A stretch of 64,000 nucleotides of DNA from NCBI RefSeq assembly GCF_036971445.1, contig NC_091480.1, forward strand, positions 23,870,001 to 23,934,000, in the 5' to 3' direction. Under the pieces are notes generated by a model. It was not told the origin of the DNA and did no database searches. It saw nothing but the letters and a program-made list of their open reading frames with translations. Every line of letters starts with the position of its first letter. Position 1 is the first letter of the stretch. The stretch is from Narcine bancroftii. Its lineage: Eukaryota. Position numbers and translations under genes: made by a program. Below are positions 51,045 through 62,179 of this stretch, in pieces.

Positions 51045-52369
51045 TTTCTCTTTGGCTTGGCTTCGCGGACGAAGATTTATGGAGGGGGTAAAAAGTCCAC
51101 GTCAGCTGCAGGCTCGTTTGTGGCTGACAAGTCCGATGCGGGACAGGCAGACACGGTTGCAGCGGTTGCAGGGAAAAATTGGTTGGTTGGGGTTGGGTGT
51201 TGGGTTTTTCCTCCTTTGCCTTTTGTCAGTGAGGTGGGCTCTGCGGTCTTCTTCAAAGGAGGTTGCTGCCCGCCAAACTGTGAGGCACCAAGATGCACGG
51301 TTTGAGGCGTTATCAGCCCACTGGCGGTGGTCAATGTGGCAGGCACCAAGAGATTTCTTTACACAAGAGAAACTTGTCCGTGAACTACTCTTTGCAGACG
51401 ATGCCGCTTTAGTTGCCCATTCAGAGCCAGCTCTTCAGCGCTTGACGTCCTGCTTTGCGGAAACTGCCAAAATGTTTGGCCTGGAAGTCAGCCTGAAGAA
51501 AACTGAGGTCCTCCATCAGCCAGCTCCCCACCATGACTACCAGCCCCCCCACATCTCCATCGGGCACACAAAACTCAAAACGGTCAACCAGTTTACCTAT
51601 CTCGGCTGCACCATTTCATCAGATGCAAGGATCGACAATGAGATAGACAACAGACTCGCCAAGGCAAATAGCGCCTTTGGAAGACTACACAAAAGAGTCT
51701 GGAAAAACAACCAACTAAAAAACCTCACAAAGATAAGCGTATACAGAGCCGTTGTCATACCCACACTCCTGTTCGGCTCTGAATCATGGGTCCTCTACCG
51801 GCACCACCTACGGCTCCTAGAACGCTTCCACCAGCGTTGTCTCCGCTCCATCCTCAACATCCATTGGAGCGCTTTCATCCCTAACGTCGAAGTACTCAAG
51901 ATGGCAGAGGTCGACAGCATCGAGTCCACGCTGCTGAAGATCCAGCTGCGCTGGATGGGTCACGTCTCCAGAATGGAGGACCATCGCCTTCCCAAGATCG
52001 TGTTAGATGGCGAGCTCTCCACTGGCCACCGTGACAGAGGTGCACCAAAGAAAAGGTACAAGGACTGCCTAAAGAAATCTCTTGGTGCCTGCCACATTGA
52101 CCACCGCCAGTGGGCTGATAACGCCTCAAACCGTGCATCTTGGCGCCTCACAGTTTGGCGGGCAGCAACCTCCTTTGAAGAAGACCGCAGAGCCAACCTC
52201 ACTGACAAAAGGCAAAGGAGGAAAAACCCAACACCCAACCCCAACCAACCAATTTTCCCCTGCAACCGCTGCAACCGTGTCTGCCTGTCCCGCATCGGAC
52301 TTGTCAGCCACAAACGAGCCTGCAGCTGACGTGGACTTTTTACCCCCTCCATAAATCTTCGTCCACGAA
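51045..52369. mobile_element. RTE insertion with two outward-facing 3' ends (- arm 51045-51360, + arm 51361-52369)
   Basis: The left arm is the reverse complement of the RTE 3' ~315 nt; the right arm is RT through the 3' end. TTTCAATT flanks both sides (51037-51044, 52370-52377). Confidence 0.92.
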
Positions 52370-55329: not shown

Positions 55330-56545
55330 TTGCCCTTACCTACCACCCCACCAGGCTTTACATCCAACATATTATCCCCCCATAATTTGGTCACCTACAA
55401 AATGATTCTCTGTACTCACCTCTCCACCTTCCACATGTCGACTCTCATGTTGACTCATCCCTTCCCACTAATTGCCCCTGCAGTAGCTACCCTTGTGACC
55501 GCAGGAAGTGCCTCTCTTGCACCCACATCTCTGCCCTCACCACCATTCAGGGCCCCAGTCTTTCCAAGTAAAGCAACACTTCACTTGTGAATCTGCAGGA
55601 GACATCTCCTGCATCTGATGCTAATGTTGTGGTCTTTTCGACATCAGAGAGACTGGACGTCTACTGGGAGATGGCTTTGTTTTGAGCATCTTTGCTCTGT
55701 CCGCAGCAATGATGGTGGACGCCTACTGGGAGATCGCTTTGTTTTGAGCATCTTCGCTCTGTCCGCAGCAATGATGGTGGACGCCTACTGGGAGATCGCT
55801 TTGTTTTGAGCATCTTCGCTCTGTCCGCAGCAATGACGGTGGACGCCTACTGGGAGATCGCTTTGTTTTGAGCATCTTCGCTCTGTCCGCAGCAATGATG
55901 GTGGACGCCTACTGGGAGATCGCTTTGTTTTGAGCATCTTCGCTCTGTCCGCAGCAATGATGGTGGACGCCTACTGGGAGATCGCTTTGTTTTGAGCATC
56001 TTCGCTCTGTCCGCAGCAATGATGGTGGACGTCTACTGGGAGATCGCTTTGTTTTGAGCATCTTTGCTCTGTCCGCAGCAATGATGGGGATCTTTTGTGG
56101 CCGCCCCTTTTGATTCTGTGCCCCACTCCTACACCAACATGTCTGTCCAAGGCCTTGTGCACTGCCATGCCAAGGCCACCTGCAAATTGGACGAGCACCT
56201 GATATTCCATCTAGATACTCGACAACCGGATGGCATTAACATTGAATTTTGTTTCTATTAGGCCACTCCCCAGTCTTTCCCTCTTTCTCCTCTCTTTTAA
56301 CTCTCCACCCCCTTCCCTCTCCATTCAGAATTATTACTTCTCAGATTTCTTTCTTTTGTGTCCTCCCTTCTCCATCCACCTATGACATGTTTCCTGTGGA
56401 CCTGTGCTCCTCTCCCTGCCCCTCTCTCCACCATTTTATTTGCTTTTTGCTCGAGGGTCAGGACCAAAATGTTGATTTGGATGCTTTATCTTTGCAATAT
56501 AAAAAACACTGCATGACCTGTTGAGTTTCTCCAGCATTTTTTGCA
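55330..56545 (+). mobile_element. Penelope-like element 3' part with internal tandem expansion
   Basis: C..RKCLSC.H, HFTCES, ETGRLLGDRF.EHL.SVR, KLDEHLIFHLDTRQPDGINIEF, and terminal GACCTGTTGAGTTTCTCCAGCA. Confidence 0.85.
55655..56088. repeat. 62-bp minisatellite, 7 near-identical units
   Basis: Unit GGACGCCTACTGGGAGATCGCTTTGTTTTGAGCATCTTCGCTCTGTCCGCAGCAATGATGGT. Confidence 0.97.
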
Positions 56546-57169: not shown

Positions 57170-58362
57170 TGAAGGTTATATGGACAGACATATACCATAG
57201 AAACAAGCTGTTCTGCCCAATTTGTTCATGCTGACCAAGTTTCCGACATGAACTAGCCCCATTTGCCTGCAAATGTCTTTCCCAAGTTATAATTACATCC
57301 GCCTCTAACACATACTTTACCAGCTGGTACCATATACCCAGCACTCTCTGTGGAAAAGGTTCCCTCTCAGGCCCCCTTTTAATCATTCCCCGGCTCATTG
57401 TGAACCTATGCCCTCTAGTTTTAGACTCCCTACTTTGGGAAAACTCACCATTCACCTTTCTACACTGCTCAGTATTTTCTGAATTTCTGTAAGCTGCCTT
57501 TTAGCTTCCTACACATCAGGAAAAAAACTCTGCCTATCCAATCCTTCCTCACAATCCAAGCCTTCTAGTTCAGGAACATTCTTGCTAATCATTTTAATCT
57601 TTTACAGCTTCATGACATCTTTCTCGTAGCTGGGAGTACTGTGTACAGTGCTGGTCACCAAGTACAATCTCACCAATGTCTTATACAGTTGTATCAAATC
57701 TTGCCAACTGATGTACTTAATGACCAGACCAATGAAGGCAAGTGTGGCAAATGCCTTTTGCAACACCATGCCTGTGTTGTCACCATCAGGGATCGATGTG
57801 CCTGGTCTCTTTGCTCTGCAACAATTTCCATGTCCTGCCATTTACTGTGGAAGCCCTGATCTGGTTTAACTTATTAAAATACAATTTACACTTGTCCTAG
57901 TTAAATTCCACCCCCCTTTCCTTGACTCACTTCCCAAGTTGATCCAGATCCGGTTATTGAACATTACAGCACAGTACAAACCCTTTGGGCCACAGTTTTG
58001 TGCTGACGTGTACAAACCTTCCCAACAAGCTACATCTTCCCCACCTCACATTCATAACTCTCTATCGTTCTTCCATGTATGTGCCTGTCTAAGACTCTTT
58101 CAAATGCCCTGATAGTACCAGCCTCCACCAACACCCCGGCAATCCATTCCAGACACCCACTACTCTGTGTAAAAAAAACTTATCCCTGATGTTTCCCCTA
58201 AACTTCCCATCCTCACCTTGAATGTATGTCCTCTGGCATTTGTTAATCTCACACTGGGGAAAAAAGTGTTGACTGTTCACCCTATCTATGGGTCTCATAA
58301 TCTTGTAGACCTCCATTAAATCACCTCTCATCCTACGAAGAGAAATGCCTAGCTCTGTTAAT
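57170..58362 (-). mobile_element. Two adjacent CR1 3' fragments (57170-57955, 57960-58362)
   Basis: KTRGHRF...FPQRVLGIW, QLYKTLVR and MRGDLMEVYKIMR.IDRV...FFLHRVVGVWNGLP. Confidence 0.85.
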
Positions 58363-58528
58363 TGTTATGCTTGTTCTTTCAAGAAACACTAAACCAACTT
58401 TATTTTCCTTGAGCTGCTTCAACCGACTTCTAGCAACAACACCTATCATATGTCTCTTCCGGTTTCCACCCAACCACACACATTGCATGCTGGAAAATAT
58501 AGTTCTTATTTACACACATAATAACACA
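58363..58528 (-). repeat. 3' LTR (about 165 bp) preceded by a polypurine tract
   Basis: TG(TG)TTAT...ATAACA termini, PPT at 58529-58539, AATAAA at 58399-58404 (-), ZNF143-like ACTATATTTTCCAGCATGC and ETS-like CCGGAAG. Confidence 0.8.
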
Positions 58529-58611
58529 TCTTTCCCCTTAAAATAAATAAAAAAAACACAATACTATGTCTACATAGCAAAAGTATCTCCATTCCAGGGT
58601 TGGTCTCTTTC

Positions 58612-59340
58612 CATCAGATGACTTCTGGCTTCACAAATTCATTCAAGTTTGTTCAGGGCATCTGCAAGATTCAGCTGAAGTTCAGAAATCCATAAAGAGG
58701 TGTTTTGTTTGCTCTTCCTTTACCTGTTTCTCAGCAAGTTCATGAAGAGTCACCAGTTGATTTTGCTGCTTCAGTTCTTCAACATTACGATAGGTCACCA
58801 GATGCTGAGAAATAATTTCAGAGGAGCTGCTTATGTCAGCAGAACTAATGTAATCTTCACGTAAAATATGATTTCCTCGCATATCTTCTCGTTCCCTCAA
58901 AAGTACCCTGCTGTTAAGGCGCTTGCATTTCGCATCTCTGATTCTCCCTGTTGAGTAATAAAGCATGCTTATTTGCTTCATTAGAGCATTTCTGTAAATG
59001 GTGAATTTCCTTCATGGCACCTTCTAATTTAGCTGAGAGATTTCCCACAGATTTTTGCATTCGTTCATATTCTTCACACTGGCACTTCAGAAGCAAAGCT
59101 TTCATCTCCACTTCATTCACAATTTCATCCAAATAGTTTTCTCTCTCTTATTTTCCTGTTTTGCCAATAGCAATTGATCTTGAGCTTCAACATATCCATT
59201 AGACAACTCTGTGAGCTTCACAATCTTGGTCACAGTTGTTGCAATGGGAGACATAGGTGCCACTCCCGCTTCTGATAGTGTGGTGGCTCCTTTAAGCTTT
59301 GTAGTTGAAAGAAAATTGTTTTTTTATTTTCTAATTTCTC
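58612..59340 (-). pseudogene. TPR: Processed TPR (nuclear basket protein) fragment, about human residues 350-605
   Basis: LS.TK.KGA..LSE....[99 protein letters not shown]. No introns; frameshifts and a stop. Confidence 0.92.
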
Positions 59341-59751
59341 ACCATGAAGACACTCTTCAAGTTGTTTTCTTCAGAGTTCAGATCCTTGTATTGATAAATT
59401 CTTATCCTCTAATGCAGCCATTCTTTCTTTTAGATGCAGCTGAAGTCACTCATCAGAGTCTCTAAATGTCGCAAATATTCTTCTGCACTGCCAGGCCGTT
59501 CTTCAGCCTTTGTCAGAGCTACAATTCACTAGGCAAGTTCAGCGTCTACTTCTGGTAATGTTTCTGCTCGCTTCATCGTTTGCTGAAGTTCCAGATGTTC
59601 CTGTAACTCTATTTTTGTCTTCTGGCTGGCGTAAGAAGGCATCCTTATTTTCCAACTCATTTTCCAGTTTGTCATTCATGTCATGTAATGAGGTTGATTC
59701 TCTCTGTACATTAAGGTATCTCTTCTCCAGTGTAGTCAACCTTCCTCCCAT
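59341..59751 (-). pseudogene. PPFIA2: Processed liprin-alpha (PPFIA2/4-like) coiled-coil fragment; paralogue uncertain
   Basis: [82 protein letters not shown]. No introns; internal deletions. Confidence 0.9.
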
Positions 59752-60897
59752 GAGTGTTGTGTGCTTATCTTCAGTCTGTGAAGCCACTATGAAAACTCTT
59801 TTCACCAGGCCGAGCTCTTCACATGCACACAGACTTAATATTGGCTGAACTCTCCTTTCTACAATCAGCAGCTGTGGCTTTAGATGCTGTCCTTTGTGCT
59901 TGAAGGTCATCATACAGCCTCCTTTTACTGGAACTTTCTCTCCAGTCTAGCCTGTCACTTTTAATCTCACAGGATAAATCTTGTTCTTTATAGTGAGGGT
60001 CTTGTAATCATCCATAATAACAGATTCACTTGGGCTCCAGTGCTCATCTTCAGTGGAATTACTTATTCATTCAGCCACTGGACGATCCATTCCATTTTTA
60101 CCGCAGCAGTCTGTAGTGAATCCATTTTTTTGTCCACTGTGTGCACCTTTCTCTTCATATCCCCTGTTTTGCAGCACTTTGCAAAATGATTCTTCTTTCC
60201 ACATTTATAGCAGGACTTTCCTTAGGTAGGCACATCTTTGGAATATGTCCACCTCTGCACCTACTGCATTTGTTGTCTGAGCTTACTACTTTGCTTTGTT
60301 GTTGTTTTGGGAAACTCCTGGTGCCCTGCTTAACTGTTTTCATTGCATGCACTGTTGTGTCTATCCTGTGCAGCTCCTTCGCTTGTTCTCATGTGGTCTC
60401 TGCTGCCCTACACATATTCACAGCCTTTTCCAGAGTAAAATCTTTTACACACAACAGTCTTTCTCTAAATCTATTATCTGGGATTCTGCAAACTCTTCTG
60501 TCTTTAATGAATGAATTTTTGAAATCTCCAAATTCACAGGAATTACTCAGTGTGTGAAGCTCGGTTAAGTATTGTTCAAACCTCACATCTGGATTCTGGT
60601 CACAAGAGAAAAACTTGAATCTCTCAAATGTGATGTTTTCACTTGGAGCAAAATACTCCTCAAATTTTGTCATCAGAGTGTGCATTGTTAAAGCTGTCTC
60701 ATCAATTGAAAACTGTTATAGATGTCCAAGGCATCTTTACCTATCACATGTAGAAACATAGACACTTTCCGTTTTCCATCAGTCTCTCCCATTCCACCAG
60801 CCTCTAACTAAATGTTGAATCGCTGTTTGAAACATTTCCAGTTGTCAGCTAGATTGTCGATAAACTGCATCGGTGTGGGAGGACTCAACTTATCCAG
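59752..60897 (-). pseudogene. Gypsy gag + aspartic protease, decayed
   Basis: (L/M)DKLSPP..NLADNWK.FKQRF, KFEEYFAP..NITFERFKFF...Q, LKDR.VC.I.D...RERLL...FTLEKAV..CRAAE, two zinc knuckles (CSRC...H...C; KNHFAKCC), a degraded DTGAQVN and QPILSL.AC..LGLVKRV. Confidence 0.88.
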
Positions 60898-60940
60898 GCT
60901 TACAAACTATTATCTTCTCTTACTCTCTCAGACACTATGT

Positions 60941-61262
60941 GAAAAAAAATTACCCCTGACGTCTCCTCTGAACTTTCCTCCCTTCACTTTGTACTGATGT
61001 CCTCAGGTGTTTGCTTCTCTAGTCCAGGGGAAAAGGTGCTGGCTGTCTACCTTATCCATGCCTCATAATTTTGTACACCTCTATTAAGTCATCTCTCATC
61101 CTTCTTTGCTTGCAAAGAGATAATCCCGAGCTCTGCTAACCTTGCCTCATAAGACATATTTTCCAATCCAGGCAATATCCTGGTAAATCTCCTCTGCATC
61201 CTCTCCAAAGGTTCCACATCCTTCCTGTAATGAGGTGAACTGAACTGAACACAATATTCAGA
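60941..61262 (-). mobile_element. CR1 fragment
   Basis: EYCVQFSSPHYRKDVEPLERMQRRFTRILPGLENMSYEARL.ELG. Confidence 0.88.
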
Positions 61263-62179
61263 GTTATTATCCAAGATTATTGTTATCACCGCCTTCACCA
61301 GAGGAAATTTTGGTGTCATGCACAAACTAACCAACCATGCCAACTACATTCTTATCAGAACCTCCTCCTTGCTGCTACAACTACCAGTGGTGAAACATTA
61401 CATTGGTTAAATTGGACAGAGCTGGAAAATGTGTGCTGGGAACACAATTAACATTTAAAATGCCCTCACATAGGTCAAACACAAAATCCCATTGCAACAC
61501 AACCTTATTGCACCACAATCTTGCCCAAATTGGTAAGCGAACCACACCTGCCTGCGCCAGCACATGTTGATGAAAGCTGGAGTGCAACTTGAAAAGTGCT
61601 GCGCTCATCAAGGCTGGTGAAGACCGAGCATAAAGCAGCGAAGAAGATGTATCCATTCAGAAAGAGAACATGCATCTCTAAATTGAAAGGTAGACACGAG
61701 TCAAAGGCAATCAATAAGTACCTCCCTATCCTTGCAGATCCATATGTCAATGCTGCCTGGTGGTCTCTGCTAAGATAGAAGAAGATTTCAGCTCTCCTTC
61801 TGTGCAGTGCATTTATAACCAGTTTCTACTCTGTGGCTTCAGTTGTGAAGCATTTTAGCAGAGACCAGTTTATTGAAATTAAGTATTCCAATACTTAATG
61901 GGATGGGATAGTTGGTCTGCAGGTGAAGAGAGCTAGTCAGACATTGTCTGCACTAGATTCCATCCTACAGTCCTGTGTAACATCCCATTTCATTGGCAAT
62001 TGAGACCCACCAGAGGCGGTGACGGAGCAACATTGCAGGAGGCACAGCCCTCTGCATCTTCCACAACAACTCCCCCTCCTCTGCCCATCTTCTGTACTTC
62101 CACAACCCCCTCCCCCCCCCCCCCCACCCCCCAAAGGGCCATGTAAAGGTCTTTCTGATATCAATCAACATCTTCCCTC

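Follow-up and report, generated by a model that had tools for sequence, protein, structure and literature searches.

Fusions of host sequence to gag are known from the acutely transforming retroviruses, whose gag-onc genes hold host mRNA in frame with gag within a replication-defective genome. In LTR-mediated retrocopies, as set out in the pertinent passages of Tan et al. 2016 (PMC5131818), partial spliced mRNA takes the place of the internal ORFs of an LTR element on the same strand, the switch points show about 6 bp of microsimilarity, two parental genes can contribute to one element, later rounds proceed as a non-autonomous element, and two fly retrocopies have multiple insertion sites. Maize Bs1, as cited in that paper, is an LTR element with pieces of several unlinked host genes that possibly encodes a functional protein. 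The excerpts on mouse IAP 1-delta-1 in PMC6466679 and PMC7411935 describe a very successful, non-autonomous element with pol supplied in trans, whose novel in-frame Gag fusion arose by internal deletion (gag-pol) and was found by experiment to aid its own RNA in cis. Neither the mechanism of capture nor chimeras of several genes nor Gag fusions that act in cis are new in themselves.

The element described in this study comes from the electric ray Narcine bancroftii. Like the retrocopies in the cited passages of Tan et al. (PMC5131818), it carries pieces of spliced mRNA from two parental genes (PPFIA2, encoding liprin-alpha2, and TPR) on its own strand in place of internal ORFs, joined at identities of 8, 6 and 6–7 bases, and it spread further as a non-autonomous element, to an estimated 200 copies; unlike them, it resides in a cartilaginous fish and its cargo is in frame with gag-protease. 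The partner of its Gag is host mRNA and not, as in IAP 1-delta-1, part of pol, and a cis effect of the fusion would be an indirect conclusion where that of the mouse element was experimental. It resembles Bs1 in the several unlinked genes it has sampled, but every copy that we examined is broken; in contrast to gag-onc genomes, it has neither env nor a transforming cargo, nor any sign of selection for its cargo protein. A literature search of mainly open-access papers, not of repeat databases, turned up neither the ray element nor any capture of two genes that had multiplied to such an extent.

One copy lies in the window (the whole stretch of 64,000 nucleotides that was analysed; Table 1). 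From the paired LTRs of other copies, from its own polypurine tract and gag-CCHC-protease content, from the primer-binding site (PBS) of the family, which we take to resemble a tRNA-Leu type, and from the protease-reverse transcriptase (RT)-RNase H-integrase order of its pol-bearing relatives, it is classed as a non-autonomous Ty3/gypsy-type LTR retrotransposon.

Table 1 Parts of the chimeric element copy in the window (positions counted from the first letter of the window)
Feature	Position	Strand	Basis or remark
Decayed chimeric LTR element	58363..60936	(-)	blastn of other copies; from the PBS-internal edge through the 3' LTR
gag with CCHC zinc knuckle (~60215-60167)	60090..60890 (approximate)	(-)	Stops and frameshifts inside
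Aspartic protease and beginning of protease-RT linker	59752..60089	(-)	PF13650/PF13975 across the matching region in the relatives P0167, P0170 and P0186
Junction 1, pol linker to liprin	59744..59751	(-)	8-base identity; pol-bearing copies compared with host exon
PPFIA2 (liprin-alpha2) piece, spliced	59335..59751	(-)	P0002 residues 311-491; five exons of the host, intronless
Junction 2, liprin to TPR	59335..59340	(-)	6-base identity of both host mRNAs, across a liprin exon-exon boundary
TPR piece, spliced	58609..59340	(-)	~Residues 352-607 (P0122 numbering); six host exons; PF25785 E 4e-11
Junction 3 and 3' untranslated region	58538..58612	(-)	TPR meets parent element right past the integrase stop codon; 6-7-base identity
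Polypurine tract	58529..58537	(-)	
3' LTR, TG...CA	58363..58528	(-)	At both ends of other copies

This copy retains its 3' LTR and polypurine tract, lacks a 5' LTR and is broken throughout its coding parts. The Pfam matches of gag in the window fall short of the curated cut-off (PF00098, E 0.0023; PF03732, E 0.012), and through copy L116 gag is collinear with the natural gag-protease proteins P0162, P0170 and P0180; among 18 candidates, a search for homologues of the gag piece gave none at E ≤ 0.001. The position of the catalytic Asp of the protease is Ser (60044-60042), and the liprin piece has lost 2, 15 and 109 nt. LINE-like fragments, which we presume to be CR1 3' ends, adjoin both ends of the element (60940-61343 and 58089-58362), the right one occupying the expected place of the 5' LTR and primer-binding site. 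No clear target-site duplication was seen in the three copies that passed our filter, the flanks being heavily decayed. Elsewhere in the window lie a tandem array of about eight copies of a 62-bp unit with 97–98% identity (55592-56149) and an inverted repeat whose 300-nt arms are 99% complementary around a 708-nt spacer (51062-52369).

An earlier, sequence-only reading had taken this copy for the remains of a continuous Gag-protease-liprin-TPR frame that was possibly under selection. The open frame it saw running from protease into liprin exists, stop-free over 59539-59946 (-) with the liprin match starting at 59751, but near 59608, where 2 nt are lost, it passes out of the frame of liprin, so that its last ~22 codons are not liprin. 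Its in-frame liprin/TPR join is borne out, the shared bases being in phase with both host genes, with a net shift of +2 following in the window copy. Two losses that it offered as frame-preserving, AEQKL in liprin and PGMK in TPR, do remove whole codons (15 and 12 nt) but are mostly private (1 of 62 and 4 of 50 copies) and hence say little about the source element. Three of the stops fall at Gln/Arg codons as proposed (59531-59526, 59448-59446), whereas a fourth (59373-59371) replaces a Leu codon and is not a C>T change; and the large liprin deletion, described as out of frame, is so at 109 nt in this copy, but the family event is one of 99 nt, in frame, to which a further loss was added here.

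Both cargo pieces derive from mRNA, since five exons of PPFIA2 and six of TPR are joined without introns. The host PPFIA2 exons (G000:C23) translate to P0002, the Narcine bancroftii liprin-alpha-2, and the host TPR gene lies at G000:C11. Pfam (PF25526, E 5.7e-20) and a liprin-alpha2 chain in PDB (8z22, E 1.4e-16) place the liprin piece within the CC2 coiled coil (for which see the description in PMC12151379). We saw no sign of any role of this piece for the element, and we found no solved structure for the TPR piece. Over a three-codon stretch of TPR (~residues 480-483, P0122 numbering) the copies are closer to the shark protein than to the present host gene, so the host changed after the capture.

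The chimera is a transposon family and not a single-locus host gene. A DNA search returned 639 candidates, of which 40 were scored and many span both joins. Our collection holds 95 element loci including that of the window; five were dropped as same-place repeats or a near-identical duplicate (L087, L090, L095, L096 and L113), and 74 of the remaining 90 aligned to liprin and 65 to TPR, with the proviso that copy frequencies are not unbiased because loci were chosen by best score. A 26-base pattern across junction 1 occurs at 85 dispersed places (none in a reversed control) and is present in 32 of the 74 aligned chimeric copies, from which we estimate about 200 chimeric copies. The equivalent pattern for the pol-bearing form occurs at 96 places, an estimated copy number similar to that of the chimera. 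These pol-bearing relatives have the order gag-PR-RT-RH-IN (read in L116 by tblastn with P0186 and P0190) and run on into RT from the same 8 bases at which the chimera turns to liprin; RT, RNase H and integrase are absent from chimeric copies, and in gag-pro the two forms differ at one fixed non-CpG site.

The median divergence of chimeric copies from the host cargo is 10% (72 copies), paired LTRs with a primer-binding site, found by a strict rule at 18 of 98 loci, differ by 16%, and almost no substitutions are common to several copies; together these values indicate one old, star-like burst. The copies have decayed neutrally, and the D-T/S-G motif of the protease is still readable in 12 of 57. 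The window copy and L026 (G000:C24:22.87 Mb) have more substitutions in common than almost any other pair, as well as the 2-nt liprin loss; segmental duplication was rejected for this pair, which has no common flanks. Other close pairs of this kind are L050/L065, L006/L061 and L064/L078. L112 and L113 (G000:C1:73.22 and 73.23 Mb), 14.4 kb apart with identical match statistics, probably arose by tandem duplication not long ago or from a repeat in the assembly. The gag-protease part also has matches of ~85–95% identity in contigs from other organisms (run X1, organism A; run X6, organism C). In X6 the match extends into the linker of pol type, and no piece across junction 1 is listed for either run. 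On these matches, other species may have the parent family too.

That the liprin-TPR protein was instead domesticated as a host gene, here or elsewhere, with the protease freeing it for a cellular role, strikes us as very improbable. Low-depth contigs from runs presumed to be RNA, none of them recorded as such, do span both joins, with three listed pieces at junction 1 (depth 6–26) and two at junction 2 (two runs, one species label). These contigs, however, are unstranded and derive from diverged copies other than that of the window, and intron sequence occurs in one of the runs. In the window copy, moreover, stops and shifts are numerous and the catalytic Asp is missing, and in 73 of the estimated 200 copies the stretch free of stops around junction 1 reaches at most 221 codons, with a median of 68; the length of the frame in the source element is derived from such per-copy counts alone.

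Every join, the three of the main family as well as those of its sister chimeras, falls on an identity of 6–9 bases; the three of the main family bear the mark of template switching that Tan et al. 2016 (PMC5131818) set out. At junction 1 the eight bases encode Met-Glu-Glu in both pol linker and liprin, and at junction 2 the six encode Lys-Glu in both liprin and TPR. Splicing was rejected as the origin of junction 2: although a liprin exon boundary is spanned, the TPR side has no pyrimidine tract and the 6-base identity is enough. Measured between flanking anchors, junction 1 has a net length change of 0 in 44 of 62 copies and is in frame in 48, and junction 2 has a net change of 0 in 39 of 50 and is in frame in 42. 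The captured pieces were thus joined in frame, but the sequence-only reading set the chance of two such joins too low, at 1 in 9. Of 380 exact matches of at least 8 nt between pol and cargo, 184 (48%) keep the phase, as do 278 of 473 (59%) of at least 6 nt and 30 of 47 of at least 8 nt between liprin and TPR, an in-phase share of 0.48–0.64 against a naive 0.33. Because short shared stretches are so often in phase in both partners, two in-frame joins arise by chance with a probability of ~0.28.

The sister chimeras show other outcomes of such joining. In L128 (C17:107.70 Mb) and L129 (C15:196.56 Mb) the end of gag is joined to a longer TPR piece (~residues 291-901) without liprin, and in L127 (G000:C22:72.15 Mb) the liprin-TPR join is at a different place; the 3' join of these three long-TPR loci also differs. 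They may represent an earlier capture that supplied the TPR piece of the main family. A pattern search for further gag-TPR copies returned L129 itself only. L125 (G000:C5:26.15 Mb), in which most of pol precedes the downstream (3') half of the liprin-TPR cargo and the two meet at a 9-base identity within the tail of integrase, is a recombinant of parent and chimera.

At the family level, a once-continuous gag-protease-liprin-TPR frame is supported by the net change of 0 at both joins in most copies and by the lack of any common non-CpG stop or gag-pro break, but the TPR end is broken in most copies. Eight inherited events bear on this frame, and seven are in frame: junctions 1 and 2, the gag-TPR join of L128 and L129, the liprin-TPR join of L127, a loss of 99 nt in liprin, and losses of 48 and 252 nt in TPR that are exact in two of the three long-TPR copies and near-equal in the third. 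The eighth, a loss of 19 nt in TPR (14 of 44 copies), is out of frame. By comparison, 69 of 193 unshared deletions of at least 10 nt are in frame. At least seven in-frame events of eight has p 0.017 (3.6 expected), or 0.033 under a looser null (42 of 94), 0.05 when the out-of-frame L125 join is counted and 0.23 for the main family alone, in a post hoc test of a small sample whose events were picked after being seen and four of which are present in one to three copies. The count does not include a shared +1 break in the longest A run of the cargo, since a change of a single base is never in frame.

Of 54 copies measured, 21 have the 99-nt liprin loss and a further 10 a net change from -91 to -112; neither the 99-nt loss nor the 252-nt TPR loss has more than a little microhomology. 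Carriers of the 99-nt and 19-nt losses are no more related than random copies by a shared-substitution test (p 0.97 and 0.34), so inheritance of these losses is read from their identical breakpoints alone. A pattern for the intermediate of a two-step path to the 99-nt loss had no match, which does not in itself prove that the intermediate is absent. Every non-CpG stop allele stays below 15% of copies, and against all three references no gag-pro indel is found in a large share of chimeric copies, although several recur in 4–11; recurrent indels at low counts (3–6 copies) are mostly frameshifts, which may have been inherited or have arisen repeatedly.

The chances seem to us about even that source elements kept the gag-protease-cargo frame open because near-complete translation favoured the copying of their own RNA. 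We hold it possible, and rather doubtful, that there was no selection on frame at all, and that in-phase short identities between coiled-coil genes produced a short, well-packaged passenger which was moved in trans in one burst. The in-phase share of exact matches and the main-family result above are what chance would give, and a star-like burst allows few rounds for selection; moreover, the TPR tail has a net change of 0 in only 3 of 44 copies, 14 having lost 19 nt and 13 having gained 1 to 3. However, the three inherited long deletions all remove whole codons, as only 36–45% of unshared ones do, and the inherited breaks lie solely in the last tenth of the cargo, both of them ~180 nt ahead of the 3' LTR. 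The in-frame losses take out 16–84 coiled-coil residues, which fits selection on frame and not on content, and on the frame-selection reading the frame mattered and what the cargo encoded did not.

Substitutions give no sign of selection on the amino acids of gag-pro or cargo. Between chimera and host cargo 18 synonymous and 1 non-synonymous differences are fixed, a ratio that might pass for strong constraint but is ruled out as such: each copy carries on average 20.4 synonymous changes, so that evolution of the host genes since the capture accounts for the excess and the element stem comes out near zero. Alleles present in 15–60% of copies (20 non-synonymous to 7 synonymous) match rare ones (2773 to 964; Fisher p 1.0), as expected without selection. 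In pol-bearing copies gag-pro shows 20 to 10 (p 0.2), no significant constraint. With one fixed gag-pro difference, and with even the pol-bearing copies unconstrained, these tests have low power. The selection proposed by the sequence-only reading is thus suggested for the frame, by the inherited events rather than by the evidence then offered, and finds no amino-acid signal.

Under the frame-selection reading, RT would have switched templates at short shared stretches, presumably inside particles, and so exchanged RT, RNase H and integrase for liprin-alpha2 and TPR mRNA pieces, after which pol-bearing relatives would have mobilised the chimera in trans. Since gag and protease share a single frame in the natural relatives P0162 and P0170, every Gag would carry the cargo. 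An out-of-frame capture would instead leave an untranslated tail of 1.3–2 kb, and in the part of PMC2925335 that concerns them, retroviral RNAs with long tails are targets of decay. Translation could then act in cis by sparing the RNA long-tail decay or by having it packaged by its own Gag fusion, and a stop ~180 nt before the LTR would leave a short tail, so that late breaks would be tolerated.

A more specific role for the TPR piece is conceivable and, in our judgement, unlikely. It could have docked the Gag fusion or the released coiled coil at the nuclear basket, or hindered the retention of unspliced RNA by TPR, in either case aiding passage through the pore. By such an account, an LTR element would have captured the basket-binding part of TPR in frame with Gag, been trimmed to it and used it for pore passage or for blunting RNA retention, its pol-less copies matching the parent in number, a sequence of events to which we likewise give little credence. 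The kept piece, ~352–607 in shark numbering, is close to the envelope-binding region of human TPR, amino acids 357–606, which in the available portion of bioRxiv 10.64898/2026.10.08.757499 contains ZBD2 (357–479) and NBD (450–606); in human cells, according to the pertinent part of PMC3258255, TPR retains unspliced gag/pol-CTE RNA. The trimmed form moreover has ~200 copies where three long-TPR copies (~residues 291–901) were found, and no widely shared deletion lies within the ZBD2 part. We assume an offset of about two residues between human and shark numbering. Against a role for this piece, the family-wide frame break near TPR codon 572 (~58710 in the window copy) costs most copies the last part of the NBD, though ZBD2 would remain; no amino-acid constraint is seen; the 3' end of the piece is fixed by microhomology with the untranslated region of the element; and the long-TPR copy L129 lacks 525 nt from the middle of the region.

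In the ray family, exon shuffling by a vertebrate LTR element has left an extensive fossil record, in which sister chimeras mark successive template switches. It makes an open question countable: whether the frame of captured pieces was kept by selection on the element or reflects the phase bias of microhomology. An in-phase share of 0.48–0.64, and not 0.33, is a correction needed for claims drawn from in-frame junctions. If the TPR piece did work for the element, it would be a case of a transposon exploiting the host's gatekeeper of RNA export.
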